A DNA stretch of 54,524 nt, taken from positions 1 to 54,524 of the IMG/VR virus record IMGVR_UViG_3300034357_000647, one strand, 5' to 3'. The stretch's first letter is position 1; every line of letters begins with the position of its first letter. The notes under the pieces were generated by a model. The model was not told the origin of the DNA, ran no database searches, and saw only the letters and a program-made list of their open reading frames with translations. Shown piece by piece: positions 183 through 16,316 of this stretch. Origin of the DNA: a virus. Its lineage: Duplodnaviria > Caudoviricetes. A program made the position numbers and the translations under genes.

Positions 183-1034
183 GTGGCTAGAGAAGCAACA
201 TTAGGAATAGCAATCGGTAAAAAAGGTGTTGGTAAATCATATTCAACACTTGCAATGATTCAAACAGTATTAAGACACCCAAAGAAACCTAGAAAGGTTT
301 TAATTTTGGATGTAAATAATGAATTTGGGGATGTTCAAAAAGATCAAAACAAAAACTTTGCTAATATTAGAGCAATTTCATTATCCGAAATTAAAAAATG
401 GTGTTATAATGGAATAATAGAAGCTAGAAGAGTAACTGTAATGAAAGAAGGTGGTGGTAAAATGACCTTAAAAGAAACAGCAGATGCTTTAGCTGTAATA
501 TTAGAAAACTTTCAAAATGGTGTATTACTTATTGAGGATATTACAAAATTCGTATCAGATTCTTTGCCAGGAGATTTAATAGGTGCTATTTGTACACAAA
601 GGCACGTTTCATGTGATGTGATACTTCATTTTCAATCAGTTGGTAAAATGGCTAATCCAAAACTATATGCCAATACTAATTGGTTACGTGTACACAAAAC
701 GGATGATACAGTTAAACGCCACGAATCAAAGTTTGGTGAAGATGTAACTCATTTATATTTAGCTGAAAAATTGGTTGAGTTACAATATGAAAAGGGTAAC
801 ACAAGATTTTTTGTTTTTGTAGATAAAGACATGAAAAATATAAAAGGAGCGTTTACAAAAGCAATGTTTCAAGAAGCAGTAGAAGCTTATTTAGTTGACA
901 ACTATAACTTGGTTGAAAAAGAATTGAAAAAACGTGTTTTAAGAACTGGTAATTTGCTTCATCAAGATAGAACAAAAGCTACAGAACATATTATAGCAAA
1001 ATATATGAAGGAATACTATGGAAATCAAAAATAA
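183..1034 (+). CDS. FtsK/HerA-superfamily genome packaging ATPase (A32/P9-like)
   Basis: Walker A GKKGVGKS near N-terminus, ILDVNNEF strand, Walker B LLIED, arginine-finger QRH followed by HFQS; 283 aa; GTG start. Confidence 0.85.
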   Translation: MAREATLGIAIGKKGVGKSYSTLAMIQTVLRHPKKPRKVLILDVNNEFGDVQKDQNKNFANIRAISLSEIKKWCYNGIIEARRVTVMKEGGGKMTLKETADALAVILENFQNGVLLIEDITKFVSDSLPGDLIGAICTQRHVSCDVILHFQSVGKMANPKLYANTNWLRVHKTDDTVKRHESKFGEDVTHLYLAEKLVELQYEKGNTRFFVFVDKDMKNIKGAFTKAMFQEAVEAYLVDNYNLVEKELKKRVLRTGNLLHQDRTKATEHIIAKYMKEYYGNQK

Positions 1035-1157
1035 TCTTTAACTTTACATATTGAATTAATAAAGTGTGTAAATTCTATGTGTATAGAATACTGATATTGT
1101 AAACCAATAAAAGTTAAAACATACAATTGTTTTCATTATTATCATATTTTAAGTTTT

Positions 1158-1191
1158 AAATCCCGATTATTAAAAATAGTTGGGATTTTTT
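1158..1191 (+). terminator. Intrinsic terminator hairpin
   Basis: aaatcccgattat-loop-atagttgggattt followed by T run. Confidence 0.75.
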
Positions 1192-1212
1192 ATTGTGTGT
1201 TAAATTTATTGT

Positions 1213-1220
1213 TATATTTG
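1213..1220 (+). promoter_or_regulatory. Bacteroidota -7 promoter element
   Basis: TATATTTG matches TAnnTTTG. Confidence 0.6.
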
Positions 1221-1270
1221 CATATAAGTTTAACATTCATAAACTTTTTTTTATTTATATTTAGGTAAGG

Positions 1271-1302
1271 AAAATCCCGATTAATATTTAATCGGGATTT
1301 TT
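1271..1302 (+). terminator. Intrinsic terminator hairpin (near copy of 1158-1191)
   Basis: aaaatcccgattaa-tat-ttaatcgggatttt perfect inverted repeat plus T. Confidence 0.8.
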
Positions 1303-1328
1303 GTTTTTATAATTTATTATATAAATAT

Positions 1329-1336
1329 TATCTTTG
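1329..1336 (+). promoter_or_regulatory. -7 promoter element, probably giving a leaderless mRNA
   Basis: TATCTTTG ends 4 nt before ATG at 1341. Confidence 0.55.
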
Positions 1337-1340
1337 TACT

Positions 1341-2306
1341 ATGAGTACAGCAATAACTGGTAATTTAATTTCATTAGACTTCACAAATATATCGAATCAA
1401 ACAAACGATGTAAACATATTTTCTTTTGAATCAAGTGCTGGATCTACAGAAACTATATTTGTAACTGAATTTGCTTATTATCCAACCGTTCAAATAAATA
1501 ATTTATCATTTGGATCACCAACATTAGATACATTTTTCAATGCAACAATGTTTGGTTTAGTTAAGGAATTTAATGATTTTTATATAGGTATTTACTCTTT
1601 TACTTATGAATTAATTTCTGGTGTGGGTATTGGTGCTATTTATAGACTTTTTGTTAAGCAATTAAATTCTAATTATATACCAGTTTCAATATATAGTGAT
1701 CAATTTTATTATTTTACTGAAAAACAAGTTATTTCTGGTTCAACAGTAGCTGTAACATCTAATTCTGAATTAAGTTATAATGAAATTTCAAATGATTTAC
1801 AAGTACAACCATATATAATTGATTCAATTAATGTATATGCCAATACGCTTTCACAAGTAGATATTAGATGGAAAAAAATAATTAAAAATGCAAATGGAGT
1901 TTCAGCTACAGATTTTAACCAACCTAGAGTTGATCCAATGCAAAAGCAATTTGCAATTGAAAATATACCATTAAATTTTACACCAAGTTCAATAAATATT
2001 TTAGGCTACCGTTTGAATGGATTACAAACAGTACGTGTATTTTTCTATTATAGAACAAAAGATCAATTTGATTTAGCAAATAAAAATTGTTTATCAAAAG
2101 AAAACTTTGATTCAAATACTAAATTTATAAACCCAGAAATTATGATTCATAAAAAACAAATAAACATACCTTTAATTGATTTAACTAAACCAACAATAAA
2201 AGCTGTTTCTATTAAAGAAAAAATAGCAAAAGAAATTAAACCTAGAGAAATTTCTGAAGCTGAAGTTTTTAGTGCATTTGATGGTGTTGATTATAAAGAA
2301 ATGTAA
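1341..2306 (+). CDS. Capsid-protein paralogue (second or minor jelly-roll protein with inserted domain)
   Basis: LSYNEISNDLQVQPYIIDSI...NANG...PRVDPMQKQ aligns by eye with ITYAEFLQDIKSSPFKVGQI...ESNG...PRLDPMQNQ of 4591-5262. Confidence 0.6.
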   Translation: MSTAITGNLISLDFTNISNQTNDVNIFSFESSAGSTETIFVTEFAYYPTVQINNLSFGSPTLDTFFNATMFGLVKEFNDFYIGIYSFTYELISGVGIGAIYRLFVKQLNSNYIPVSIYSDQFYYFTEKQVISGSTVAVTSNSELSYNEISNDLQVQPYIIDSINVYANTLSQVDIRWKKIIKNANGVSATDFNQPRVDPMQKQFAIENIPLNFTPSSINILGYRLNGLQTVRVFFYYRTKDQFDLANKNCLSKENFDSNTKFINPEIMIHKKQINIPLIDLTKPTIKAVSIKEKIAKEIKPREISEAEVFSAFDGVDYKEM

Positions 2307-2308
2307 AT

Positions 2309-2339
2309 AAAAAAGCGAGAATTAAACCTCGCTTTTTTT
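2309..2339. terminator. Bidirectional intrinsic terminator
   Basis: aaaaaagcgag-aattaaac-ctcgctttttt between convergent genes. Confidence 0.8.
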
Positions 2340-2340
2340 A

Positions 2341-2610
2341 TTAATCAATCCATCTACGAACACTACGCTCTTGAAGCTCTTTACCATATTGCTTTTTACC
2401 GTATTTTAAATTTTCAATTTGTTTTTCTAAATTAGAAATATCAATAAATAAAATATTTCTATTTCTAATTGCACCCTCCACGAATTCAGAAGGTGCTTTA
2501 TCTTTTATATATTGCATTAAAATAGCTGTTTCAGCAGTAAGTTGTGTTTTTTTTAAATTAAGCTCTTCAACAACTACATTTGATTGTTTTTCATTAAATG
2601 GAGTTTTCAT
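2341..2610 (-). CDS. Hypothetical coiled-coil protein
   Basis: 89-aa ORF, last of a tight 3-gene minus-strand operon. Confidence 0.7.
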   Translation of the reverse strand: MKTPFNEKQSNVVVEELNLKKTQLTAETAILMQYIKDKAPSEFVEGAIRNRNILFIDISNLEKQIENLKYGKKQYGKELQERSVRRWID

Positions 2611-2611
2611 A

Positions 2612-3457
2612 TTAAATAGGATCAGTTAAATATTGAAGTTCTTTTAACTGAACTTTATCTTTTTTTATTTCTTCAATAATACCATTAACCCTATTTTTTA
2701 AAGAAGTATAGTACAGCCATAATTTTTCTTCATCATTTACATGTTCAGAATATTTATCTAAAATAAATTGCAGTTGAACATCAATACCAGTTTTAGCAAT
2801 TAAATTACCACGTTTATAATAATCTTCAACTTTTTCTTTAGCTTCAGCAAGTTCTACTTCATAAACTGGCAAAAATTGTTCAACGTAATATTCATTCCTA
2901 GAATTTAAACGTTTGTTTAAAGTTTTTAAATGAAGTTCTTTTTCAAATATTTCTAGCTTTAATTTTGAGCTTTCATAAAATGTTAATCCACCTTCAGATA
3001 AAACATTATTTCCTTCTTCAATAAAACTTTTAATGTATTCAATATTTTTTTCAAGATTATCAATTACAAAAGGGTGTTCAATATTAGCTGGTAATTTAAC
3101 AGCCTTACCAAAAATTTCATATTCAGATAATTTTTCAGCTTCTTTTTGGTGATTAATAAATTCAATCGTTTCTTTTTCTTCTTTAGTTGCAATTTTATCA
3201 ACTTGTGGTATAACGTAATGTTGGTAATCTCTTCTTGTTAATTTAAAACGTTCAGACAACTGGCGAGCTTTCCATTCATTTTCATTTAATTCAATTTGAA
3301 GTTGAGAACTTTCTAACTTTGAAAGTTTTTTACTTTCCAATTTCATTTTGATTTCTTTAATAAGATCTGAATGTAACGCTACACCTTTTGCATAGGTTTC
3401 CATTAATTTTTCAGACATATCTTTTTTGTACAATAATGTTACTAATTTTTGATCCAT
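2612..3457 (-). CDS. Hypothetical alpha-helical protein with internal duplication
   Basis: 281 aa; LSKLESSQLQIELNE...YVIP resembles LTFYESSKLKLEIFE...QFLP. Confidence 0.75.
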   Translation of the reverse strand: MDQKLVTLLYKKDMSEKLMETYAKGVALHSDLIKEIKMKLESKKLSKLESSQLQIELNENEWKARQLSERFKLTRRDYQHYVIPQVDKIATKEEKETIEFINHQKEAEKLSEYEIFGKAVKLPANIEHPFVIDNLEKNIEYIKSFIEEGNNVLSEGGLTFYESSKLKLEIFEKELHLKTLNKRLNSRNEYYVEQFLPVYEVELAEAKEKVEDYYKRGNLIAKTGIDVQLQFILDKYSEHVNDEEKLWLYYTSLKNRVNGIIEEIKKDKVQLKELQYLTDPI

Positions 3458-3468
3458 TTTATTTTGTT

Positions 3469-4188
3469 TTAATTTAATTTACCAAACCAAGTTGTGTTAT
3501 AATGCTTACATTGAATTGTTGTATCAACATAAATAGGTATTTGCAAATAGAAACAATCATTTGCAAACCAAGTATCAGAATGAAAGTTTACATTTTCAAC
3601 AGCTCTAAAAGGAATTTTTTCAAATACTGAACGGTGAATTAATACACAACCTAATCCAGCGTGATAAACTTGTTTTAATTGTCCATTAAAAAAAGTAGGT
3701 TCTTCATCTGTTAAAAATAAGGGAGTTCTATATTCACGAATATTTTTATCATACGGTTCATCAATCTGAATCATAGGAGTTCTTTTTGATCCAAAAAATA
3801 AATCATAAACACCAGCACAAACCTTTTTATTATTATTTAATAAACGTTCAATAACATCAAAAGGAGGTATAATATCAGTTTCTAAATGAAATATAAAATC
3901 AAAATCATGTTTTAAAGCATATAATCTACAAGCTTCATGTGAATCATTAATCGTAAAAATAATCCCTTTTTTATTTTGAGGGATATGTTTTACTTTAATA
4001 CCTAGATTTTTAAATTTTTTGTAATTTTCTTTTGAAATAGAATTATCGGCTAAAAAGACTTCATATCTATGAGCTGGATAAGTCAAGTTTTTTACTCGTT
4101 CCCACCAAATTTCCCAAGCATAATTTTTACTTTCATGTTGGGGCGCACAAATCAATACTTTTGGTAATTGTATTTTTTCGTTTTTCAT
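3469..4188 (-). CDS. Glycosyltransferase, GT2/GT-A fold
   Basis: KVLICAP start, FLADNS, FIFHLETD (DxD-like), GLGCVLIHRSVFEKI, SDTWF, IYVDTTIQCKH. Confidence 0.85.
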   Translation of the reverse strand: MKNEKIQLPKVLICAPQHESKNYAWEIWWERVKNLTYPAHRYEVFLADNSISKENYKKFKNLGIKVKHIPQNKKGIIFTINDSHEACRLYALKHDFDFIFHLETDIIPPFDVIERLLNNNKKVCAGVYDLFFGSKRTPMIQIDEPYDKNIREYRTPLFLTDEEPTFFNGQLKQVYHAGLGCVLIHRSVFEKIPFRAVENVNFHSDTWFANDCFYLQIPIYVDTTIQCKHYNTTWFGKLN

Positions 4189-4429
4189 TCTTTTAAATAT
4201 TTTCGTCTAAATTATATATTATAAATACCTAAAAAACAGTTATTCGTTAACATTGTTTAACGTTGCAATTAATTGATAATAAGCAAGTAAACCTTTAATA
4301 TATAACTAAATGTTATTGCTAGATTTTATAAAACCTATCAAACAACACAACTTTGTAACAATTAGCGAAACAGTGAGTGTTCGCTGTTAGCATTAAAAAA
4401 TTTGTGTAAATTTTAAAAAACAAAAAAAA

Positions 4430-4552
4430 ATGAAAACAATTAATCCATTAGTTCAAATTTTAAAAGAAGCTTTACCAGTAGTTATTGGTGTTGCTGGTGG
4501 TATGTTCGTTTATGAGTTCGCCAAAAAGCAAATGACAAAAACAACAATGTAA
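4430..4552 (+). CDS. Small membrane protein (40 aa), not in ORF track
   Basis: MKTINPLVQILKEALPVVIGVAGGMFVYEFAKKQMTKTTM*, A-rich start context, directly before capsid gene. Confidence 0.7.
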   Translation: MKTINPLVQILKEALPVVIGVAGGMFVYEFAKKQMTKTTM

Positions 4553-4590
4553 TCTTCAAAAAAGAAGTTTAATTTAAAAAAATCAAAAAA

Positions 4591-5262
4591 ATGAATTATT
4601 TTGAAACAGCAGAGAGTTTCGCAAACGAAAACTACTCTAATTATAGTGGAAGCGAATGGAATAATTTCGTAGATGCTTATGCTTATGCAGATGGTGGAGC
4701 AGAACAAGACATTGCATCTTCTTTGCCTTTCGTAATCAATATTAACAACTCTACTACAAATGACGTTAGTTCAGTAGTTGTTTTAAATGCGAATACAGCT
4801 GGAAACGCTTCAGCACCAGCATTCGGTAACAATGCAGCAATTACTATTACTATGGACAATGGTGATATTACTTATGCAGAGTTCCTACAAGACATTAAAT
4901 CTTCTCCATTTAAAGTTGGTCAGATTTACTTGCAATCAGCAAACGCTTCACAACCGTTTAAAGCATTAACAATCAAACATAGAGAATCAAATGGTATCGT
5001 AAGATCTATTCCAGTATCTCCACGTTTAGATCCAATGCAAAATCAATCTGGTGTTACTATCGTGAAATACCAATTCCCAGTAAACGCTTACACATCAATC
5101 ACAACAACAATTTTAGCAAGTGCTACATTGACTATGTCATTATATCCTTCTGAACAAATTAACGTTGCTCGTTCATTATCTGGACAAGATGTTACTAAAG
5201 CTTACGCTAGACCAAGTTTATCTCAATTACAAATTCCTAACGGAAGACCATTAGTTGGATAG
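4591..5262 (+). CDS. Putative major capsid protein, single jelly-roll-like
   Basis: 223 aa with about 8 alternating beta-strand segments; codons typical of high expression (aac, ttc, tac, atc); followed by strong terminator; acidic/aromatic N-terminal arm. Confidence 0.65.
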   Translation: MNYFETAESFANENYSNYSGSEWNNFVDAYAYADGGAEQDIASSLPFVININNSTTNDVSSVVVLNANTAGNASAPAFGNNAAITITMDNGDITYAEFLQDIKSSPFKVGQIYLQSANASQPFKALTIKHRESNGIVRSIPVSPRLDPMQNQSGVTIVKYQFPVNAYTSITTTILASATLTMSLYPSEQINVARSLSGQDVTKAYARPSLSQLQIPNGRPLVG

Positions 5263-5287
5263 TCTTACAAGATAAGTAAAATACCAT

Positions 5288-5325
5288 AAAAGGGTAGGTG
5301 GTTTAACTACCTACCTTTTTTTTTT
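5288..5325 (+). terminator. Intrinsic terminator after putative MCP
   Basis: aaaagggtaggtgg-ttta-actacctacctttt plus long T run. Confidence 0.85.
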
Positions 5326-5344
5326 GAAACCAAAATAGAAAATA

Positions 5345-5749
5345 ATGAATGTATATCAATATACAGCTTTAAACAATCCACAAGGTTCAACCAATATGGT
5401 TGAAAGTTATGGTATTAGAGCAATTAGACACCCAAAACATTTAGCGAAACAATTAGCGTTGGTAGTTGCTAAACATAGAGATAGTGCTTTGGGGAAATTA
5501 GCTGAAATTCATCCAGACGTTCCATTGTTTCAAAAACAAATTGATGATTTCAAAGTGAAAATAAAATCAGAAAGCGAAAAAAACAACTCTTCATTTTCTA
5601 ATTTTATTGATGGACAAACGATAAAATCTGATATAGCTTCACTACAAGATAAAGTTTCAACAACTCCAGAAACTGGTAAAAGCAAAACAGAATTATTAAT
5701 TATCGGTGGGGTAATAGTTATTGGTTTAGCTATCATTTTCAAAAAATAA
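5345..5749 (+). CDS. Virion membrane protein, C-terminal anchor
   Basis: Ends LLIIGGVIVIGLAIIFKK; carries FSNFIDG. Confidence 0.75.
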   Translation: MNVYQYTALNNPQGSTNMVESYGIRAIRHPKHLAKQLALVVAKHRDSALGKLAEIHPDVPLFQKQIDDFKVKIKSESEKNNSSFSNFIDGQTIKSDIASLQDKVSTTPETGKSKTELLIIGGVIVIGLAIIFKK

Positions 5750-5762
5750 AAAAAAAATAAAG

Positions 5763-6386
5763 ATGATATACGGTGGTGATATAATGAGTAATTTTTCTGG
5801 ATCAATCATGTCAAATGATAAAGAAATGCAAAAGGATATTTTATTGTCTGAAATTCATAAGATTTTAGATAAAAACCCTAAATCATTAATTGATGCCTTA
5901 AAAAATTCTGGTGTAGATGTTCCTTCAGATATATCAAAAAAACATTTAATTCATTTGGTGGTTGAAGCTGTTTATGAAAATACTAAATTTAGAGAAAATA
6001 TAGCATTTTTAATAGCTCAAAATCAAAATTCAAATTTCTCAAATGCAAATGGTGAATTAATTGATAAAATAAAAGGTTTTTTCGCCAAATCTGGTGATGG
6101 TTCATCGGATTCAACAGCTGAAGGTGCTGGTGGAAAAATTTTAGGTGGAGCTTCAAGTGGTGGTGTTGTAGGTGCTGTATCTGGAGCAGTAAATTCAATT
6201 TTTGGATTTGCTAAATCTAAAACAGATGCAAAAACACAAAAAGAAGCTGATAAACAAACATTAATATTAGCTCTTACCCAAGACGAAGAAAAAAAGAAAA
6301 GTAATTTAATGCCAATCATAATAATTGCAACTGTTTTATTAATCGGTGGTGCAATTGCAGTTGTTTCATTAAGAAATAAAAAGTAA
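5763..6386 (+). CDS. Virion membrane protein, Gly-rich segment and C-terminal anchor
   Basis: Ends IIIIATVLLIGGAIAVVSLRNKK; carries MSNFSG and FSNANG. Confidence 0.75.
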   Translation: MIYGGDIMSNFSGSIMSNDKEMQKDILLSEIHKILDKNPKSLIDALKNSGVDVPSDISKKHLIHLVVEAVYENTKFRENIAFLIAQNQNSNFSNANGELIDKIKGFFAKSGDGSSDSTAEGAGGKILGGASSGGVVGAVSGAVNSIFGFAKSKTDAKTQKEADKQTLILALTQDEEKKKSNLMPIIIIATVLLIGGAIAVVSLRNKK

Positions 6387-6389
6387 AAA

Positions 6390-6905
6390 ATGAATAATAA
6401 CGCTACTTATTACAATTGCCAAATAACGAGGGATTTTAAAGCTCCAAAACGTAATGGTGGTTCAGTAATGTACAAAGAGTTAAAAAAAAACAATGTTATT
6501 GTAGCAACACCAATAAATGCAAGCAGTACACCAAATTCTGTATTGAAAGTATTTAAAACACAAGATGGTTATATGATACCAGAAAATTGTGTTCATATAT
6601 TATCGAAAGTAAAACAACATTCAAACGTGAATGGTTCAGAAGAAATTGAATATGCAGAAATAGTTGAAGATAAGCCAAAAACAATGGCTTTACCAACACC
6701 TACTTCAATTAAAACTGGATTAACACAATCAATTCAAACAAAAAGCAAAATTGCAGTAAATGGAGCTTTAATTGGATTAGGCGTAGGATTAGTTTATGCT
6801 ATGATGAAACAGAAAAATAAATTAATGTTTTCAGCTTTAGGATCTGTAGGAGGATTCTTTATTGGAAACTTATATAATAACTATATAAACGAAGATAAAA
6901 AATGA
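6390..6905 (+). CDS. Membrane protein with two C-terminal hydrophobic helices
   Basis: GALIGLGVGLVYAMM and FSALGSVGGFFIG; carries HSNVNG. Confidence 0.75.
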   Translation: MNNNATYYNCQITRDFKAPKRNGGSVMYKELKKNNVIVATPINASSTPNSVLKVFKTQDGYMIPENCVHILSKVKQHSNVNGSEEIEYAEIVEDKPKTMALPTPTSIKTGLTQSIQTKSKIAVNGALIGLGVGLVYAMMKQKNKLMFSALGSVGGFFIGNLYNNYINEDKK

Positions 6906-7360
6906 TTACAAGAACTCAATGGAAGCCTTTAGATGCTAGGGGAATAGTGCCATTTACAGTAAATAAATCTATTACACTTGATTTATACACATGTGATAAA
7001 GATAAAGAAGGCACAAAACAAACGTTCATGAAAGATTCAAAGTTTGAAGGTCAATTAGTAAGAGCTAGAATTTCAAAACGTTTATTAAATGGTGCTTTTG
7101 TTCCACATACAGAAACAAGTGGTTTAATGGTTACTACTCCAGATAAATCTGGTTATTATTTAATTCCAACTTCTGTAGCCCAACCAATCGAAGAAGTTGA
7201 AATAGATGAAACTATTTCACCTATGAATAAATCATTAACATCAGATATTCAAACTGGATTAAAAGATATTAATGAAAACCCAGAAAAAAAATACTTTGGT
7301 TTTACTGTTAAGCAATTATTAGTAATCGGAGTAGCATTATTAATCGTAAGAAAACTTTAA
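6902..7360 (+). CDS. Membrane protein, C-terminal anchor
   Basis: Ends LLVIGVALLIVRKL. Confidence 0.7.
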   Translation: MITRTQWKPLDARGIVPFTVNKSITLDLYTCDKDKEGTKQTFMKDSKFEGQLVRARISKRLLNGAFVPHTETSGLMVTTPDKSGYYLIPTSVAQPIEEVEIDETISPMNKSLTSDIQTGLKDINENPEKKYFGFTVKQLLVIGVALLIVRKL

Positions 7361-7364
7361 AAAA

Positions 7365-7850
7365 ATGTCAAGATCTCATTACTATCATATAGATGCAATG
7401 GTTAACAATGTTGCAACAGCACCTTTAGAACCAGTATTAAGTCCAGAAACACAGCCTACATCTTCAAGACCAACAAGAGGAACAGCTGATGTCTTAACAA
7501 CTAGTCCAGTATTTACTATGCCAACTTACACACCTACAATGTCAATTGACGAAGGGGATAGTAGAGGTAATGTTTTAACAACTCGCCCAGTATTTACTAT
7601 GCCAGTTTACACGCCAACAGTAACCGTTCCGATTTCAGATGTTGTACCAGTTGCACTTGCTACGCCAACAGCAATTAAACCAATGCCTACTTATGGTGGT
7701 GGAGGTGGTGGTGGTGCTATGAGTACACCAAAACCACAAACAAAAGAATTTATGGAAGCACCAAAACCAAGTTTTTTGAAAAGAAATTGGTTGCCAATTT
7801 TATTAATTGGATCAGCAGTTTTCATTTTAATTAAAAAACCAATAAAATAA
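7365..7850 (+). CDS. Pro/Thr-rich membrane protein with poly-Gly and C-terminal anchor
   Basis: Duplicated VLTTxPVFTMPxYTPT, GGGGGGG, ends WLPILLIGSAVFILIKKPIK. Confidence 0.75.
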   Translation: MSRSHYYHIDAMVNNVATAPLEPVLSPETQPTSSRPTRGTADVLTTSPVFTMPTYTPTMSIDEGDSRGNVLTTRPVFTMPVYTPTVTVPISDVVPVALATPTAIKPMPTYGGGGGGGAMSTPKPQTKEFMEAPKPSFLKRNWLPILLIGSAVFILIKKPIK

Positions 7851-7855
7851 GCAGT

Positions 7856-8230
7856 ATGAATACAAATATGCAATTAGAATTAATCCAGAATCAACAAGAT
7901 AACCTTTCGGCTAACAAAGTTTACAGAGGTTGGTTAAATGCTGGTGGAACTGGTTCATTTAAAGACTTTATGACAAAAGCACAACAAGAAGGTTGGTTAG
8001 ACCAAGGGTTGAACGCTTTAAGTGCATTAGCATATACTAAATACGGTACAGAGGGAACAAAAGGTGATATTATTGGTGATACTCCATGTGATGAAGGTTA
8101 TGCAAAAGATGAAAATGGAATTTGTCAGCCAATCAAAAAAGGAATGTCAACTATAGCTATGGTTGGTATTGGCGTTGCTATAGCTGGGGTTATTACTGGA
8201 GTTATTATATTAATGAATAAGAAAAAATAA
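7856..8230 (+). CDS. Membrane protein with small Cys loop and C-terminal anchor
   Basis: CDEGYAKDENGIC before IAMVGIGVAIAGVITGVIILMNKKK. Confidence 0.75.
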   Translation: MNTNMQLELIQNQQDNLSANKVYRGWLNAGGTGSFKDFMTKAQQEGWLDQGLNALSALAYTKYGTEGTKGDIIGDTPCDEGYAKDENGICQPIKKGMSTIAMVGIGVAIAGVITGVIILMNKKK

Positions 8231-8236
8231 GAAATT

Positions 8237-8587
8237 ATGGGATTTAACGAAGAACTATACACAATGGGATTAAAACCAAGTGTATCTAAAAAAGGATATA
8301 ATAATTTTAATACTGGTGATGAAATACCGACATTAGCATTAAAACCAATTAATAATACAATTACACCAGAATTAACAGCGTTTAAATCAAACGCTGGATT
8401 AATGGCGTTAAAAGCAAACGAAGTATTCAAAGATTCTTTTGGTATTCCTGATTTAACTTCAACTAATACTGAAGATGAAGAAATGAAAGAAAAAATGACT
8501 ACTAAAACAAAACAAATTGTTGTTGGATCAATGGTTGCTTTGGCATTAGGTGTGGTAATTTTTATAGTAATTAAAAACAGAAAATAA
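8237..8587 (+). CDS. Membrane protein, C-terminal anchor
   Basis: Ends IVVGSMVALALGVVIFIVIKNRK; carries YNNFNTG. Confidence 0.75.
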   Translation: MGFNEELYTMGLKPSVSKKGYNNFNTGDEIPTLALKPINNTITPELTAFKSNAGLMALKANEVFKDSFGIPDLTSTNTEDEEMKEKMTTKTKQIVVGSMVALALGVVIFIVIKNRK

Positions 8588-8589
8588 TT

Positions 8590-9093
8590 ATGGGATCAAT
8601 ACCTTATTTATACGTAGTAGATGAAGCAAAAACGCTTCAAGCGAAAAACGATGAAATCATAAAAGAAGTTTGTTTTACTGAAGATTACGCGAACTTCGAT
8701 TCTAGTGATATAAGTAAAATTTGTGATGGTTTAGGTACTAAATCTGGAGATTGTACAGACCAATTAGATGGAACTGAATCTACTGGTTATGATTTAGACT
8801 TCAATATTAAATATTGGAAAGCAGTAAAAAAAGGGTATAAAGGTACAATTAAAGAATTTGATGATCGTCAACAAAAAGTTGGTAAAGCATTCGGTTACGC
8901 AACAACAGCTGGTACTTTTTTAGCTGGTTTGTTATCAAAAAAATCTAATCAAGGTGAATCAGTAAGTTATGACAAAACAACGGAAGAAGATATTAAACCA
9001 AAAATGAGTATTGGTTCAATATTAGGTTTAAGTGTTGGTGTAATAGCTTTAATAGGTGTAGGTTTATATTTTGCTTTAAGAGATAAAAAATAA
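8590..9093 (+). CDS. Membrane protein, C-terminal anchor
   Basis: Ends ILGLSVGVIALIGVGLYFALRDKK; carries YANFDS. Confidence 0.75.
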   Translation: MGSIPYLYVVDEAKTLQAKNDEIIKEVCFTEDYANFDSSDISKICDGLGTKSGDCTDQLDGTESTGYDLDFNIKYWKAVKKGYKGTIKEFDDRQQKVGKAFGYATTAGTFLAGLLSKKSNQGESVSYDKTTEEDIKPKMSIGSILGLSVGVIALIGVGLYFALRDKK

Positions 9094-9099
9094 TAATTA

Positions 9100-9861
9100 A
9101 TGAACGAATTTAAAATACCTTGTAACGGAGAGCCAAGCAAAATACTTTTAAAAGTGAGTGTAAATTCACCAATAAAAGTACGTGTAATGGCTTTTAATCC
9201 AAATGTGCCAAATACGTACTATACTAATAGAGTAAAAACAGTTAATGGTCAAGGTGAGTTTGAAGTTCGTATGCCACAAAATTGCGAAAATGTAATTGTA
9301 AGAGTTATACCTTTAAATGGAGCAAGTAATCAATTAAAAATTGTTTCAGTTGAAAAACAAAAACTAAATCAATTTTCAAATTGTTTTTCAGATAAAAACA
9401 TAATGAGCTTTGTTAAGTTCGCACAAGAATTTAGTGAAAAAGCTTCAATTTTATCAAAAGGAACTTATTATAGTGATGATCGTAAATATAGAATTGATTA
9501 TTTTGATGTAATTACACAAGAGGGAAGAACAATACCAACTCCAGCACGTATAAGTAACATAAATGGTAGAATGGAAGTTGCAAAAAGAAGTTTTGTAAAC
9601 TATACAGTACCAATGAGAATGGCAATTTTGTTGCATGAATATTCACACTTTAACTTGAATAAAATTCAGCACGATGAAATTGAAGCAGACTTAAACGCGT
9701 TAAGAATCTATTTGGGGTTAGGCTATCCAGTAATTGAAGCACATAACTCATTTTTAAATGTATTTAAAAATACACCAACACAACAAAATAAAGAACGCTA
9801 TCAATATATAAAAACGTTCATTGATAATTTTGAAACGTTAAAATATAAAATTTGTTTATAA
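9100..9861 (+). CDS. Zincin metallopeptidase with N-terminal beta domain
   Basis: AILLHEYSH (HExxH) followed by EIEAD...GY, an M48-like ligand pattern. Confidence 0.75.
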   Translation: MNEFKIPCNGEPSKILLKVSVNSPIKVRVMAFNPNVPNTYYTNRVKTVNGQGEFEVRMPQNCENVIVRVIPLNGASNQLKIVSVEKQKLNQFSNCFSDKNIMSFVKFAQEFSEKASILSKGTYYSDDRKYRIDYFDVITQEGRTIPTPARISNINGRMEVAKRSFVNYTVPMRMAILLHEYSHFNLNKIQHDEIEADLNALRIYLGLGYPVIEAHNSFLNVFKNTPTQQNKERYQYIKTFIDNFETLKYKICL

Positions 9862-9874
9862 TAAATCCAGTAAA

Positions 9875-10036
9875 ATGAAAATCTACGTAAGAAAACACAC
9901 AAACAAAACAGCTTTTGAAAAACATAAAGCTGGACTAAAAAAAAGAGGTGCAAAAATTGATAAAATTGAAGGAATGACAATTACTTATCGTTTCCCAGTT
10001 TCTCCATCAAAAAACACTTCAAGATACGAAAATTAA
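9875..10036 (+). CDS. Small basic protein (53 aa), not in ORF track
   Basis: MKIYVRKHTNKTAFEKHKAGLKKRGAKI...YEN*; possible DNA-binding core protein. Confidence 0.6.
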   Translation: MKIYVRKHTNKTAFEKHKAGLKKRGAKIDKIEGMTITYRFPVSPSKNTSRYEN

Positions 10037-10061
10037 TAAATAACAAATAAACCCAAAAACG

Positions 10062-10199
10062 ATGAACAAAAAAGTATTAATCGGAATCGGAGTTGTAGCA
10101 ATCCTAGGATATTTATGGTACACAAACGATAAAAAAACAAAAACCACAAAAGTAACTACTCCACCAGCTGTATTAGCAGAAGAAGTAAAAGTAGCTTAA
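10062..10199 (+). CDS. Small membrane protein (45 aa), not in ORF track
   Basis: MNKKVLIGIGVVAILGYLWYTNDKK...*, followed by terminator. Confidence 0.7.
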   Translation: MNKKVLIGIGVVAILGYLWYTNDKKTKTTKVTTPPAVLAEEVKVA

Positions 10200-10207
10200 T
10201 TTATTTT

Positions 10208-10235
10208 AAGGCAAGTTTTCGGATTTGCCTTTTTT
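10208..10235 (+). terminator. Intrinsic terminator
   Basis: aaggcaagt-tttcgg-atttgcctt plus T run. Confidence 0.75.
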
Positions 10236-10255
10236 ACATTTTAAATATAAAGAAA

Positions 10256-10375
10256 ATGGAATTAAAAGAAGAAGAAAAAAAGAAAAAAAGAATGTATCAA
10301 ACATTTTTAATCGGTGGAAGTTTTATAATTCTTTCAACGTTAGTTATATTTGCAATTAAAACACGTAAAAAATAA
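10256..10375 (+). CDS. Small membrane protein (39 aa), not in ORF track
   Basis: MELKEEEKKKKRMYQTFLIGGSFIILSTLVIFAIKTRKK*. Confidence 0.65.
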   Translation: MELKEEEKKKKRMYQTFLIGGSFIILSTLVIFAIKTRKK

Positions 10376-10381
10376 TAAAAA

Positions 10382-10888
10382 ATGGCAGTATTACAAAATT
10401 TACCCCCAAGAGCAAGAGGAATAATCGCAGTTGTCGTTACGGTTAGTGTCGTTACTGGTGCTGTTTTTGGAATTATAGCTATTAGAAATGCAGTTAAAAA
10501 AAAACAAGCTGGAACTAGCACTGGGCAAAAAGAAGAACAAAAGCAAGTAGAAAAAGAACTTGATGTTTTAAATAAAGATGCAAAAACAAAACAAAAATTA
10601 ACAAAATCACAAGCTGAAGCTATTGCAAATATATTTGATGCCTCAATGCAAGGTTTAGGAACAGACGAGCAATCTATTAAAGATCAATTTTACAAAATGC
10701 AAAATGATGCAGACTTTGCAGCTGTTGATAAAGCGTTTGGTAAAAGATTAATTTATTCTGGTTCATGGCTTTTTGTTTCTGATGTAGAGTTAACAATGAT
10801 ACCAGCTTTACACAATGAATTAAGTGATTGGTGGATTAACGAAATAAATGGAATTTTAAAAGCAAGAAATATTACATATAGAATCTAA
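10382..10888 (+). CDS. N-anchored membrane protein with annexin-like motif
   Basis: TM IIAVVVTVSVVTGAVFGIIAI; SMQGLGTDEQSI resembles annexin GxGTDE. Confidence 0.65.
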   Translation: MAVLQNLPPRARGIIAVVVTVSVVTGAVFGIIAIRNAVKKKQAGTSTGQKEEQKQVEKELDVLNKDAKTKQKLTKSQAEAIANIFDASMQGLGTDEQSIKDQFYKMQNDADFAAVDKAFGKRLIYSGSWLFVSDVELTMIPALHNELSDWWINEINGILKARNITYRI

Positions 10889-11562
10889 TGAAAACAATAG
10901 AAAAACAATTAGGAGGTTTAGTTACTAGACATTTAGGTTCTGGAAACGCATTTGGAGAATTTGATAATTTTTCTGGAAATGATTGGAACAACGCTATAGG
11001 TGATGGCTTTACTTTAGATGGTTTAAACAATGAAATAGCACGTTTAGAAGCTGATCATCGTTTAGAAATGACAAAAAGAGCTGAATTAATTGCGAAACGT
11101 GATAGTGTACAATCAAAATATAACGCTTGTCAAAACATTAAAAAAAATAAAGACAAAGAAAGTTGTAAATCGCAATATTATCAATCATATTTAAGTTTAG
11201 AAAACCAAGTAGCAACAGCTTATACAGATACACAAAATGCTGGTGATTATATCACTAAAATGAAGGAAGCTTATAACGTAAAACTTCAACAAGCAAAAGA
11301 AGCTGAAGATAAGCGTATTGCTGATGAAAAAGCAAAAGGTAATATTGTAGCTAGAGATCCTAAATTAGAAGGTGCAACTCCAAAAGATTTAGATAAATTA
11401 AATAATCCTCCAGTTCCACCAATTAATGCTTCATCAAGTGAAGTTGAAAAAGCAACAAAAATCCCAGAGAAAAAAAATACTGGTAGAAATATTGCTTTAA
11501 TAGGAGGTGGTTTACTTTTGGTAGTAGGTGTGTTTTTGTTTATTAGATCAAGAAGAAAATAA
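10888..11562 (+). CDS. Coiled-coil membrane protein, C-terminal anchor
   Basis: FDNFSGNDWNNAIG at N-terminus, long helix, ends IALIGGGLLLVVGVFLFIRSRRK. Confidence 0.75.
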   Translation: MKTIEKQLGGLVTRHLGSGNAFGEFDNFSGNDWNNAIGDGFTLDGLNNEIARLEADHRLEMTKRAELIAKRDSVQSKYNACQNIKKNKDKESCKSQYYQSYLSLENQVATAYTDTQNAGDYITKMKEAYNVKLQQAKEAEDKRIADEKAKGNIVARDPKLEGATPKDLDKLNNPPVPPINASSSEVEKATKIPEKKNTGRNIALIGGGLLLVVGVFLFIRSRRK

Positions 11563-11565
11563 TTT

Positions 11566-11766
11566 ATGAGTTTACTTATAGATTTAACAAAAAGTGTACG
11601 TGGCAAGTCTATTGAAAAAGTATCAATAGACTTGCACAAAAAGAGAGTTGAAATTTGCAACTCATGTGAAAATAAAATGATAACTGGTAATTGTTCATTG
11701 TGTGGCTGTTTTACAAACGACAAAGCAAAATATGTAAATGAAGAGTGTCCTATTAATAAGTGGTAA
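11566..11766 (+). CDS. Small Cys-rich protein (DUF6171-like)
   Basis: RVEICNSC...CSLCGCF...CPINKW. Confidence 0.65.
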   Translation: MSLLIDLTKSVRGKSIEKVSIDLHKKRVEICNSCENKMITGNCSLCGCFTNDKAKYVNEECPINKW

Positions 11767-12080
11767 TGGTTAATTGGAAAAAAGCAAGTGCAATATTAGT
11801 AACAATTGGAGTAACAGCAACAGTCTTGTATGTTTCTTACTCGGTTGTTTTTTTAGCTAATAAAAAAGATTTAGCAATTATAAAAACAGCAGAACCTAAT
11901 AATCGTTTGTTTCAAAAACTAATGACTGGCGAAGCTGAAAAAATGGAAAAAAAGATTTCAAACATTACCAAAAAACAATTAAAACGACTTCATGAATTGA
12001 GTTTAAAAGAAGAGTTTACAGATGAAGAGCTTAAAGAATACGATTCAATTATAAAGAAGTGGGATTATAAAAATAAATAA
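11760..12080 (+). CDS. N-anchored membrane protein (likely start 11766)
   Basis: TM ASAILVTIGVTATVLYVSYSVVFL then charged helix. Confidence 0.7.
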   Translation: MVMVNWKKASAILVTIGVTATVLYVSYSVVFLANKKDLAIIKTAEPNNRLFQKLMTGEAEKMEKKISNITKKQLKRLHELSLKEEFTDEELKEYDSIIKKWDYKNK

Positions 12081-12081
12081 T

Positions 12082-12681
12082 ATGAAAGTAAATTACGTTA
12101 AAGTAGGAATTTTTTCAGTTTTAGGTGTGGCTACCATTTATGGAGGTTATAAACTGCATAAATATTTTAAAGAAAAAGCTGAAAAAGCTCGTTTAGAAAA
12201 ATTATTAAAAGAAAGCACCTCACAAATAGCTGTTACTGAAGTTCTTTCTTCTAACAACGCTGAAAAAGAAATAGTTGTAACCCCAGCATTTGATGGGAAT
12301 AAAGTTGTTTCAAAAGGTTCAAAAGGTGTTGAAGCAAAAACAATTCAATTAGCATTTAATAATATTATTGAAGATGCTAAAAAAGTTAATTTATTAGCAA
12401 TACCAAGTAATTATAAACCTTCTGAAGAAAAATCAGCTTCATCATGGCTTTTAGAGCCTTTTAAGGCATCAATTGCAGTAGGTAATCTTGTAAAAGTTAG
12501 TGAAAGAGTTAAACAAATTGCTTCTTTACAAAAATTAGCAACAGATGGTAATTTTGGTGCAAAATCAGAAAGTGTTTGTCAAGTAATTATGGGTAAAAAA
12601 TCAACTACTTATAATGAAGTAATGCAAAAAAGAGTTAACTTTTCTAAAGCATACGGTTTGCCAAATCCATATAACAAATAA
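12082..12681 (+). CDS. N-anchored protein with split peptidoglycan-binding-like motif
   Basis: VSKGSKGVEAKTIQLAFN ... LATDGNFGAKSE matches both halves of PG_binding_1 pattern. Confidence 0.6.
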   Translation: MKVNYVKVGIFSVLGVATIYGGYKLHKYFKEKAEKARLEKLLKESTSQIAVTEVLSSNNAEKEIVVTPAFDGNKVVSKGSKGVEAKTIQLAFNNIIEDAKKVNLLAIPSNYKPSEEKSASSWLLEPFKASIAVGNLVKVSERVKQIASLQKLATDGNFGAKSESVCQVIMGKKSTTYNEVMQKRVNFSKAYGLPNPYNK

Positions 12682-12696
12682 AATAAAAACTAAATT

Positions 12697-13002
12697 ATGA
12701 ATCAAGAAATATTACACGATAGTTACGATTACGCTGGAGGAGTTCAATTAGATGGATGTTGGTTAAAATATCCGGGCAAAAAAAACAAAACAAAGCGTGA
12801 AGAGTGCCATGCCTTATCAACAAAACAAAAAGAATCGAGTTTAGAAACTGATAAAATGTTAGCACAAGCTGTTTTAGCTAAAAGCACAAAAACAACAAAA
12901 GAAGAGGGTTTGTCAGCAATGGCTATAACTGGTATTATTGTAGGTTCATTACTTGCAATAACGTTAATGGTTGTTGTAATTAAAAAAGTAAAATCAAAAT
13001 AA
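12697..13002 (+). CDS. Membrane protein, C-terminal anchor
   Basis: YDYAGG near N-terminus; ends AITGIIVGSLLAITLMVVVIKKVKSK. Confidence 0.75.
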   Translation: MNQEILHDSYDYAGGVQLDGCWLKYPGKKNKTKREECHALSTKQKESSLETDKMLAQAVLAKSTKTTKEEGLSAMAITGIIVGSLLAITLMVVVIKKVKSK

Positions 13003-13009
13003 TTAGATC

Positions 13010-13495
13010 ATGACTTTAAAAAAAGGATTAATATTAGCTGGTATTGGAAGTTTAGTAGTTGGAATAGCTTTATGGGTAAAATACCAAATGGAATTGAGTT
13101 ATAAGTTAATTTATAACACAAAAAATGCTCGTTTAAAAAAGTTTACAGCAAATGAACTTGTTGTAGAATTTGATATGACTATTGATAATCCAACAGAATT
13201 AAAAGTAGGCATCAATGGAATGGACATAGATGTATATGCAAATGGCGTTAAAGTTACAAATATATATAGTCAAGTTCCAATTACACTTTCACCGAATACA
13301 ATGGTTGCTCTACCTTTAAAATTATCTTTAAATCCACAATCATTAATCCAAAATACTGGAGTTTTATTAAGTACTGGAACGGATATTAAGAAAGTGCTTT
13401 TAACATTAAAAGGTACACTTAAAATTAAGAAATTTGGTATTTCGTTCCCAGTACCATTTGTGTACACAGCAACTTATGGAGAATTAATGGGATAA
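13010..13495 (+). CDS. LEA_2/WHy-like beta-sandwich membrane protein
   Basis: N-terminal TM then FDMTIDNPT...MDIDVYANG...LTLKGTLKI pattern. Confidence 0.7.
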   Translation: MTLKKGLILAGIGSLVVGIALWVKYQMELSYKLIYNTKNARLKKFTANELVVEFDMTIDNPTELKVGINGMDIDVYANGVKVTNIYSQVPITLSPNTMVALPLKLSLNPQSLIQNTGVLLSTGTDIKKVLLTLKGTLKIKKFGISFPVPFVYTATYGELMG

Positions 13496-13555
13496 TGCCT
13501 TGAATCTTTTACTTTTTTTACTATATTTATGCCTTGAAATTAAAAACACAAGAAA

Positions 13556-13984
13556 ATGATAGTAGGAAAAGTAAAAGGAATCATGACAAATTGTTTAATA
13601 AGATTAGCAAGCAATGAACAAAAGCACGAAACGAGCGTTTCAATTGGCATAAGAACAACAGAAGAGGATTTTACACCTTCATATTTTTACACAGTCAACG
13701 GACAACCAGTAATGAATGAAGAGAAAACAGAATTTAAAGAATTAGATTTTAACAGAGATATATTAGGCGTTAAATTTGATTTATTAGGTCAAAAATATTT
13801 AACTGCAAATTATATTAAAAATCTAATTAAATCAGTTGTTGAGGTAGAAAAAATACCTTCAAAAGAACTGTTTTATTTAATTAGATTTATAGATTCTGAT
13901 TCAAAAGTTTTAACAGTTGGAATGTATCAAAAAGGTAAATTTTTAAGATCAATGTCAATAAATGACTTTTTAGGAGATAATTAA
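13556..13984 (+). CDS. Hypothetical protein
   Basis: 142-aa ORF with A-rich start context. Confidence 0.7.
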   Translation: MIVGKVKGIMTNCLIRLASNEQKHETSVSIGIRTTEEDFTPSYFYTVNGQPVMNEEKTEFKELDFNRDILGVKFDLLGQKYLTANYIKNLIKSVVEVEKIPSKELFYLIRFIDSDSKVLTVGMYQKGKFLRSMSINDFLGDN

Positions 13985-14004
13985 ATAAAAAAAAAATACA
14001 AGAA

Positions 14005-14283
14005 ATGAGTACAATTTTAACGGAAACTTTCACTACAGAATTAACAAACAATTCTATAACATTAACAGAAGGCATGGGGGTTAGGGCAATTACAGTTTAT
14101 TGTACCACAACTACAAGTGGAACAGTAACTGGTTCTCAACCATTAGGTTCAATATCTTCATCAGCAATTACAATTACGCAAAATACTTCATTTAATCAAT
14201 CTGCAATTGGAACTGGAGTTTTAACTGGTTTAACAATTACAGCACCAGCAAGTTGTACATTAATAGTTGTAGCACAAATTTAA
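14005..14283 (+). CDS. Small all-beta structural protein (vertex or spike base candidate)
   Basis: 92 aa, Thr/Ser/Gly-rich alternating strands, directly before spike genes. Confidence 0.55.
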   Translation: MSTILTETFTTELTNNSITLTEGMGVRAITVYCTTTTSGTVTGSQPLGSISSSAITITQNTSFNQSAIGTGVLTGLTITAPASCTLIVVAQI

Positions 14284-14292
14284 TTTTAAGAA

Positions 14293-16026: not shown

Positions 16027-16316
16027 TGTTAGAAAAATTAGATATAATAGATCAGGATGTATGTTGCTATAATGAACAATACAATCTTGAAAAAGTTTTA
16101 AAATTATCTCAATTTGTGGGAATTGATTTTAGTTATTTAGAAGGTGCAAAATTATTTACATTAAATATTACTCAACCAATAAAAAGAGTAGTTAAATTTA
16201 CTGATTTAAATGGTGCAACTCTTAATGATGAATTTGTTATATTCCCATATGATGATATGACACCTGAACAAAAAGCAGATTTTGATTCATTTGTAGAACA
16301 AGCAAATACTTTATAA
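16026..16316 (+). CDS. Small acidic protein, probable spike chaperone
   Basis: Coupled directly to preceding spike gene. Confidence 0.55.
   Translation: MLEKLDIIDQDVCCYNEQYNLEKVLKLSQFVGIDFSYLEGAKLFTLNITQPIKRVVKFTDLNGATLNDEFVIFPYDDMTPEQKADFDSFVEQANTL

Follow-up and report, generated by a model that had tools for sequence, protein, structure and literature searches.

A short sequence motif with the consensus [FYW]-S-N-x-[DEGSN]-G, or in its wider form [FYW]-[S>D,N,A]-[N>S,Y]-x-[D,E,G,S,N]-G, recurs in otherwise dissimilar proteins encoded in the first part of the virus record IMGVR_UViG_3300034357_000647, the whole 54,524-base stretch of which is hereafter called the window. The motif is enriched, depends on the order of residues, is conserved in related viruses and is confined to a structural module. 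It is very probably a functional short linear motif. The explanation proposed here is that it acts as a recognition motif in flexible regions of structural proteins of an uncultured virus lineage from lake and marine waters. It is found on the N-terminal arm of a small capsid-like protein, in one to three copies, on the C-terminal tail of the larger paralogue of this protein and, in roughly three of every ten families of C-anchored proteins, outside the membrane helix. One common partner would read it during particle assembly. This partner may be a conserved zincin-like protein of the lineage containing an HExxH signature, which would bind the motif-bearing segment beside its active-site helix; the bound segment would then be trimmed in the course of maturation, or the HExxH protein would be tethered by it to the membrane. 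The probability that the HExxH protein is the common reader of the motif, trimming it or tethered by it, is put at roughly 0.38. This reading is ranked first because of a model of the complex and because the HExxH gene belongs to the core of the module.

Gene order was compared over 56 loci, each encoding a homologue of the small capsid-like protein. The carriers of the motif and the candidate reader in the window are as follows (positions in nucleotides).

1341-2306, + strand: big capsid-like protein, with FSAFDG at 2268-2285, six residues from the C-terminus
4591-5262, + strand: small capsid-like protein of 223 residues, with YSNYSG (4633-4650), WNNFVD (4657-4674) and YAYADG (4678-4695) on the N-terminal arm
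5345-5749, + strand: C-anchored membrane protein of 134 residues, with FSNFIDG at 5594-5614 followed by a conserved helix; homologues in 47 loci
5763-6386, + strand: C-anchored protein of 207 residues, with MSNFSG at 5784-5801 and FSNANG at 6036-6053
6618-6635, + strand: HSNVNG in a protein of 171 residues, absent from 27 aligned homologues
7931-7948, + strand: WLNAGG in a C-anchored protein of 124 residues, a degenerate copy missing from the list of the first-pass annotation
8297-8317, + strand: YNNFNTG in a C-anchored protein of 116 residues, no homologue of which occurs in the fetched loci
8686-8703, + strand: YANFDS in a C-anchored protein of 167 residues, weakly conserved
9100-9861, + strand: HExxH protein, with HEYSH at 9634-9648, made up of an N-terminal part of about 90 residues and a zincin-like C-terminal part
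10960-11001, + strand: tandem FDNFSG and WNNAIG near the N-terminus of a C-anchored protein of 224 residues (gene 10888)
12724-12741, + strand: YDYAGG near the N-terminus of a C-anchored protein of 101 residues (gene 12697)

The first-pass annotation, made from the window alone, had claimed that a single motif recurs in these proteins, and the claim was borne out by its place, its enrichment and its conservation in relatives. All 13 strings quoted were found in the named genes at the places given, and the limits of the region agree with them, since 2268 is the first codon of FSAFDG and 12740 falls, within one base, on the last codon of YDYAGG. The pattern itself, [FYW][SNAD][NYA][FAYV][DSN]G, had been fitted by eye after the fact and is loose; five of the 13 strings conform to it, the other eight needing an insertion or a relaxed position. 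In the genes of the membrane-protein-rich part of the window (183-16316; 30 proteins, 5035 residues) five matches were counted against 0.06 expected from 1000 whole-protein shuffles, none of which reached five. When shuffling was restricted to blocks of 10 or 20 residues, the expectation was 0.12 and 0.07, respectively. The annotation had also proposed the tailed-phage proteome as a control. The window very likely joins two viruses at a repeat, namely a siphophage of 36.9 kb and part of an apparently tailless virus rich in membrane proteins, so the tailed-phage genes make an apt control set, and there the count was at chance level (one match versus 0.13; genes 17956-54524, 60 proteins, 11655 residues).

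An unbiased reduced-alphabet scan of the window alone did not single out the motif: before masking it yielded transmembrane patterns, and after masking nothing above the shuffles, the best pattern (p = 2e-4) being equalled by 88 of 100 of them. The proof of the motif therefore rests on the relatives, where 64 matches to the original expression were counted versus about 2 in local-block shuffles, and 175 versus about 14 for a looser one. Among downstream families of the related loci that have no BLAST homologue in the window, the expression was found in five of 134, with 0.41 expected and a maximum of three in 300 shuffles; the upstream families of the same loci gave none in 84 (0.26 expected). 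A 64-kb relative, G001, contained five matches in the module versus 0.05 expected and none in its remaining 15,480 residues (0.19 expected). Altogether, 34 of 325 BLAST families have a copy.

The family-weighted logo shows F, Y or W at the first position, Ser (55%) at the second, Asn (62%) at the third, and Gly at the sixth, the last being fixed by the search pattern itself. The fourth position most often holds Ala (42%) and not an aromatic residue, otherwise another small or hydrophobic one, and the fifth G, D, E, S or N. Acidic or polar residues precede the motif, and across families no general pattern follows it. The earlier statement that the motif sits mostly in C-anchored proteins held as a tendency: it was found in 18 of 63 downstream families with a C-terminal membrane helix (29%) versus 10 of 97 others (Fisher p = 0.005), but most C-anchored families are without it.

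Conservation in homologues, which the annotation had named as a check, was found for most sites, except that HSNVNG is absent from the homologues and YANFDS is weakly kept. In the small capsid-like protein the first site lies within residues 1-35 in 113 of 115 full-length homologues; none, one, two or three copies occur in the first 70 residues of 2, 45, 56 and 12 homologues, none occurs after residue 70, and the conservation extends to sequences at 35% identity (alignment A1). In the last 16 residues of the big capsid-like protein the motif was found in strict form in five of 18 homologues and in relaxed form in ten of 18, with none in eight of 18, and the copy stands 1-7 residues from the C-terminus. 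The 134-residue family keeps F-S-[NS]-x-[DE]-G with an invariant Gly, and its mean column conservation is 0.65 in the motif and 0.51 in the helix, versus 0.32 and 0.28 in the hypervariable linkers that flank them. The second site of the 207-residue family is widely kept as [FY]SN[AL]xG, the first in a subset only.

WLNAGG matches by eye FSNVFG and WSNGDG of unaligned homologues, the loose expression being present in seven of 22 members of the family. Unaligned homologues of the 167-residue protein have NSNIIG, SFENMT and WSNMTS in their N-terminal parts. At the position of gene 10888 the G001 protein has the tandem pair MSYADG and WSNFVTG, and both homologues of the 12697 protein contain the motif, as FNNADG and YSNAMG. 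One G001 protein bears FNNVDG and four copies of YSY[AL]GG with a period of nine residues. HSNVNG, judged from the alignment, is a chance instance.

The annotation had pointed to an HExxH peptidase in the motif cluster. As a core gene of the module the HExxH protein stands firm: all 15 loci that extend far enough have it, at a distance of 4-8 kb downstream from the small capsid-like gene. As a peptidase it stays below all curated family thresholds. Among 16 aligned sequences, H179, E180, H183, E193, E195, D197, E213 and H215 are invariant, and the last five of these, downstream of the signature, are candidate third zinc ligands. Relatives fall into 833 representative clusters at 50% identity (E<=1e-3), and among the matches listed all 150 have HExxH, whereas ExExD is present in 120 of the 150. 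Sub-threshold Pfam matches of the 16 members are to zincin families only (M48 in 7 of 16, best E 0.057; PhageMetallopep in 3 of 16; SprT-like in 2 of 16), and a match to DUF4344 in the Atlas, at 0.87 and therefore below 0.9, is a lead only. The representative search with the HExxH profile returned, among the matches listed, close full-length relatives only and no bridge to a named peptidase family. The protein is probably an active zincin. The protein itself has a motif-like string, FSNCFSD (residues 92-98, nucleotides 9373-9393), around Cys95, the consensus of its relatives at this place being Y-L-P-C-L-S-G. Cys95 and Cys252 are both invariant, and residue 98 lies within the interface modelled as described below.

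The link between the HExxH protein and the motif was modelled in a complex of three chains: the HExxH protein, residues 46-223 of the small capsid-like protein (its core) and, as the partner, residues 70-110 of the 134-residue protein. The complex score was 0.74 (0.74, 0.77 and 0.73 in individual runs) and that of the best of three controls 0.00; the control in which the HExxH chain was swapped out scored 0.00. In calibration, 58 of 80 solved complexes and two of 110 mismatched pairs reached this mark. The runs share at least 75% of contacts, the predicted local distance difference test score (pLDDT) of the partner being 56-59. Confident partner contacts include residues 87-94, 96-98 and 100-101, that is, FIDG of FSNFIDG and the following helix, and this stretch is the conserved island of the family between variable linkers. 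On the HExxH protein the confident contacts involve residues 98, 186-189, 192, 194-195, 198-199, 202 and 235-252, those near the signature starting three residues after H183, immediately behind the HExxH helix. The model supports binding of one motif-bearing segment to the HExxH protein; by extension, the protein would contact the other bearers as well, these would be virion proteins, and some of them might be cleaved. Covariation between the HExxH interface and the segment of the 134-residue protein was also considered and was uninformative, with too few loci and confounding by phylogeny. Zincin substrates usually lie along the cleft of the enzyme; it may be speculated that, if the segment follows the cleft in this way, the small or hydrophobic fourth residue of the motif would be P1'.

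The annotation had offered two readings, a cleavage site for the HExxH protein or a docking signal to the capsid, and its interpretation stands in part: the core-gene status, the conservation of HExxH and the modelled contact speak for a link to the HExxH protein, but only half of the motif is in the interface. The following points weigh against the HExxH protein as the reader. The motif occupies residues 84-90, of which the confident interface holds 87-90, its first three residues being outside, and the rest of the contact is made by a helix specific to the 134-residue family. Invariant residues are no more frequent in the HExxH interface (6 of 20) than elsewhere in the domain (49 of 154). 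The calibration counts given above hold only roughly here because the alignments were our own and unpaired, the chains were three and the partner was truncated. Tandem copies, three in the capsid-like arm and five in one G001 protein, suit binding by avidity more than they suit cleavage, as does a copy of the big protein that ends 1-7 residues short of its C-terminus. The motif occurs in only 18 of 63 C-anchored families. The HExxH protein of the window has no Pfam hit at E<=0.1 and no NCBIfam hit, and its profile found nothing relevant among solved structures. Cleavage at the motif is hypothetical.

Docking of membrane proteins to the capsid is ranked second, and is possible though somewhat unlikely. 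Here the motif would plug into a pocket at the base of the capsomer, most likely on the big capsid-like paralogue, so that the arm of the small protein pairs the two capsid-like proteins and the motif-bearing membrane proteins tie the vesicle to the shell; the HExxH protein would then serve elsewhere, for example, as a cell-wall or entry peptidase. The rank is due to the presence of the motif on the terminal arms of both capsid-like paralogues, the tandem copies and a precedent in solved single-barrel viruses, and the association with C-anchored proteins points the same way. In HCIV-1 and HHIV-2 (Sphaerolipoviridae), the small capsid protein VP7 extends its N-terminal residues beneath the base of the large VP4, and VP10 and VP13, which have C-terminal membrane helices, lie beneath capsomers and vertices (PMC6414509). 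The likeness would consist in two capsid proteins, the N-terminus of the small one docking below the large one, and C-anchored proteins under the shell; in contrast, neither a shared motif nor a protease is reported in the passages considered (PMC6414509), and the viruses have haloarchaeal hosts and genomes of about 30 kb. Against docking stands the share of only 29% of C-anchored families that have the motif; moreover, for both proteins the jelly-roll fold, like the capsid role, is a prediction. The model has no confident contact on the core of the small capsid-like protein, which by the rules of the modelling tool is not evidence against capsid docking.

Reading by the HExxH protein and docking can both be true by analogy with phage T4, where targeting peptides are removed after use. 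The prohead protease gp21 of T4 is a serine protease that cuts after Glu (LxE-type) and removes the N-terminal capsid-targeting sequences of internal proteins. The likeness would be that short N-terminal signals on several head proteins first target and are then removed, which would reconcile docking with cleavage; unlike the viruses considered here, T4 is a tailed phage with an HK97-fold capsid and no membrane, and there is no sequence likeness.

It is improbable that the motif is a self-associating or structural element, an aromatic, Asn and Gly turn capping helices, zipping with other copies or sitting at the lipid interface, with no dedicated reader. Its composition (aromatic, Ser or Asn, Gly), the acidic or polar residues before it and the nine-residue period of the tandem copies would suit such an element, and it may resemble low-complexity aromatic-rich kinked segments and aromatic-rich membrane-proximal regions. 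A generic turn would not need positions 1-3 and 6 to be tightly constrained in at least 20 BLAST-unrelated families, and the remaining proteins encoded by these genomes lack the motif.

Still less probable is a modification site, at which the core glycosyltransferase-like protein of the module would act on Ser or Asn within the motif in many structural proteins. Chloroviruses and mycobacteriophages are known to glycosylate capsid proteins with enzymes of their own, and the glycosyltransferase-like gene lies close to that of the small capsid-like protein:

3469-4188, - strand: glycosyltransferase-like protein, a core gene with homologues in 39 loci, at a constant offset of about 1.1 kb upstream of the small capsid-like gene

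The assignment of this protein is below family cut-offs, with weak matches only to Anp1 (E 3.9e-4, below the cut-off) and to the GT2-type TIGR03111 (E 0.023). A glycosylation sequon is unlikely because no acceptor residue is invariant: Ser makes up 55% of position 2 and Asn 62% of position 3, the conserved YAYADG and YDYAGG are without Ser, Thr or Asn, and the fixed positions are only the aromatic residue and Gly.

The absence of any function (chance, local composition or a leftover of common descent) can practically be dismissed, for although the motif was defined loosely and post hoc, was missed by the window-only scan and includes one chance instance among its 13 examples, it is enriched in an order-specific manner over local shuffles, hits families independent of the window with a clean upstream control, is conserved down to 35% identity and stays at chance in both internal genome controls.

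The HExxH protein as a reader and possible maturation enzyme may be compared with systems in which one consensus is found on many structural proteins, as known from adenovirus, poxviruses and T4. Adenovirus belongs to the jelly-roll capsid lineage, and its protease (AVP), a cysteine protease, cuts many virion precursors at a consensus of the (M/I/L)XGX-G type. The motif resembles AVP sites in being a short consensus ending in Gly on unrelated structural proteins, often near termini, with a candidate enzyme encoded together with the structural genes. It differs in that the candidate is an HExxH zincin-like protein, the consensus is another one and cleavage is putative; tandem and near-C-terminal copies are atypical of AVP sites. 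A consensus common to several proteins of the structural module and a candidate protease gene within this module, the protease role being predicted, are found together as in consensus-site maturation systems.

Another comparison is offered by P23-77 (Matshushitaviridae, a Thermus phage, NC_013197), which likewise has a short ATPase, two capsid proteins (the small VP16 and the large VP17) and a run of small structural and membrane proteins. The differences are the absence of detectable sequence likeness between the capsid proteins, the size of the genome, 17 kb versus at least 64 kb for G001, and the absence of an annotated HExxH protein from the record NC_013197. The motif is not enriched in the P23-77 proteome (one match versus 0.21 expected). 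Helvetiavirae-type viruses have two single jelly-roll capsid proteins, an FtsK/HerA ATPase and an inner membrane; the comparison with them, detailed below, covered the paralogous capsid-like proteins, the ATPase and tailed-phage packaging genes in G001.

Neither the capsid-like proteins nor the ATPase and the HExxH protein gave a match in PHROGs, GenBank phage records or solved structures, each where tried. A literature search, which was non-exhaustive and had supplements outside its scope, found no description of the lineage, of the motif or of a maturation metalloprotease in tailless prokaryotic viruses. Relative to the libraries and literature searched, the motif, its bearers, the zincin as a candidate reader and the virus lineage were not found before. 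To our knowledge, little is known on how tailless membrane-containing phages assemble some twenty small membrane proteins with the capsid shell, and a single peptide signal on capsid arms and membrane proteins would be a simple and testable addressing code. If the HExxH protein reads or cuts this signal, these viruses would have a maturation step for which, within this structural lineage, only eukaryotic viruses have so far provided examples. In the widest picture, a widespread group of apparently tailless viruses that infect Bacteroidota-type hosts, with genomes of at least 64 kb, two paralogous capsid proteins and an internal membrane, would use a dedicated zincin to read a six-residue consensus on capsid arms and many tail-anchored proteins for maturation or assembly. 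No maturation or targeting system with a consensus site would have been known before in a membrane-containing virus of prokaryotes, and this one would be adenovirus-like but based on a metallopeptidase. The widest picture is doubtful when all its parts are taken together.

The lineage to which the first part of the window belongs is abundant, comprising, besides the 833 clusters of the HExxH protein, 116 homologue clusters of the small capsid-like protein at 90% identity; these come from lake and marine data, and the longest contig reaches 93 kb. The loci L023, L025 and L045 belong to contigs of 48-77 kb. Gene order is kept: an upstream gene, the ATPase, the big protein, a pair on the opposite strand, the small protein, membrane proteins and the HExxH protein. 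Of the 17 loci that extend 7.5 kb or more upstream, 16 have the ATPase and all 17 the big protein. The genes of this module that bear no motif and have not been listed above are as follows.

2-163, + strand: 3' end of the conserved gene that precedes the ATPase in relatives, 57% identical over 47 residues to the C-terminus of a 328-residue protein of G001
183-1034, + strand: P-loop ATPase, a candidate packaging ATPase of the FtsK/HerA type, matching Pfam DUF87 at 24.7 bits (cut-off 23.2) over residues 12-63, the P-loop part only
2612-3457, - strand: conserved protein of 281 residues, with homologues in 33 loci and no Pfam, PHROG or NCBIfam hit

In profile comparison (hhalign) the ATPase matched the packaging ATPase of P23-77 with a Prob of 71% (E 3.7e-5, 181 columns), PRD1 P9 with 10.7% over the P-loop only, and TerL of the window, taken as a control, with 0.5%; a profile search of solved structures gave nothing relevant. 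A Get3/ArsA-like factor for tail-anchored proteins was considered for the ATPase and rejected, as only the Walker A sequence suggested it and no family hit was obtained. The 281-residue protein looks helical or coiled-coil when judged by eye. Comparison of the conserved upstream genes of relatives with PHROGs was uninformative.

The big and small capsid-like proteins are paralogues (hhalign Prob 96.8%, E 2e-10, 105 columns), and we infer their capsid role from gene order and abundance. Members of the big family range from 269 to 839 residues, the difference being due to a hypervariable insertion that separates the conserved N-terminal and C-terminal regions (alignment A3) and may be a surface tower or a host-facing domain. 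The profiles of the capsid-like proteins showed no likeness to VP16 and VP17 of P23-77, and that of the small protein found nothing relevant among solved structures. The Atlas's own model of the small protein is poor, with a predicted template modelling score (pTM) of 0.26, and no usable Atlas match was obtained. The big protein and the ATPase had no match in a tblastn search of GenBank phages, and nothing was found for the big protein in the viral contig collection. Judged by its gene content, the module would fit a tailless inner-membrane virus with two single-barrel capsid proteins.

The relative G001 has the whole module in the same order. It gave no match to three TerL families of Pfam, the TerL of the window being found as the positive control, and neither a terminase nor a portal was present among its 10 open reading frames compared with PHROGs. 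Between the ATPase and the big capsid-like gene of G001 lie about 16 kb (L002:13158-19099 onward) encoding proteins of 770, 410, 719, 1680 and 686 residues with DarB-like or methyltransferase PHROG matches. The module thus tolerates a very large insertion. The sole match in 185,579 species genomes was L058, a contig of 12.5 kb in a metagenome-assembled genome. The module is present on it, with the small capsid-like, 134-residue, 207-residue and HExxH genes, and the contig has the look of viral sequence that was binned with a genome, not of a prophage.

The window has a G+C content of 25-34%, and nearly all its genes are on the + strand. The genes at 183-16316 are almost without family matches in Pfam and PHROG and comprise those of the short P-loop ATPase, the 321-residue big protein, three genes on the opposite strand (one of them glycosyltransferase-like), the 223-residue small protein, a run of small proteins, the HExxH protein and further small membrane and spike-like proteins. 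By hydropathy, nine or ten proteins of the window have a single C-terminal membrane helix followed by Lys/Arg and are C-anchored. The genes at 18.5-54.5 kb are those of an ordinary siphophage and include HNH endonucleases, a RecE-like exonuclease, a DnaD/O-like initiator, NinG, a methyltransferase, TerL, a tape-measure-like protein, a head protease, a capsid protein and a portal, the relatives of which are found in 33-37 kb phages of Bacteroidota.

The probable join of two viruses is indicated by a 732-nucleotide direct repeat.

16942-17673, + strand: internal copy of the repeat, within the beta-roll fibre gene 16318-17952; the likely junction of the two viruses
53793-54524, + strand: terminal copy of the repeat, at the 3' end of the window

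The copies are 98.8% identical. All nine mismatches lie at 16956-17058, and hence the 615 nucleotides at 17059-17673 are identical to the end of the window. Read as a circle, 17674-54524 makes a genome of 36,851 bp, in which the fibre gene 52407-54524 runs on into 17674-17952. Contigs from public lake-water runs break at 17975-18004 or depart from the window at 18023, and one of them covers 17975 to beyond 36000 without a difference. Because of the latter contig, a single genome with two capsid systems was considered; it was rejected in view of the 732-nucleotide terminal repeat. The first part of the window is cut rather than closed, because its 5' end encodes only the C-terminal end of the protein whose gene stands before that of the ATPase in relatives. 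Most simply, the window is read as a complete siphophage and about 17 kb of another virus, with the 3' part of a fibre gene common almost base for base, and the label "100% complete" on the record probably reflects the siphophage.

The fibre genes 16318-17952 and 52407-54524 differ at their 5' ends, then show 82% and later 99-100% identity (residues 58-452 versus 356-706). This suggests that two very different viruses of a single host have recently exchanged a receptor-binding module. In a tail-fibre-like siphophage protein of 658 residues (43827-45803), the C-terminal 238 residues are 39% identical to a spike-like protein of 739 residues of G001 (L059:14560-16779, minus strand). This match represents a second host-recognition domain common to the siphophage and the relative of the membrane virus.

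The membrane-protein module also encodes a membrane-anchored LEA_2 domain protein (13010-13495, E 2.2e-9) and a Cys-rich DUF6171 protein (11566-11766, E 1e-6). The N-anchored protein 10382-10888 contains GLGTDEQSIKDQF, which we take to resemble the annexin repeat signature, and Pfam gave no annexin match. In the replication region of the siphophage, the HNH endonuclease genes 19033-19563 and 29945-30436 form a paralogous pair.

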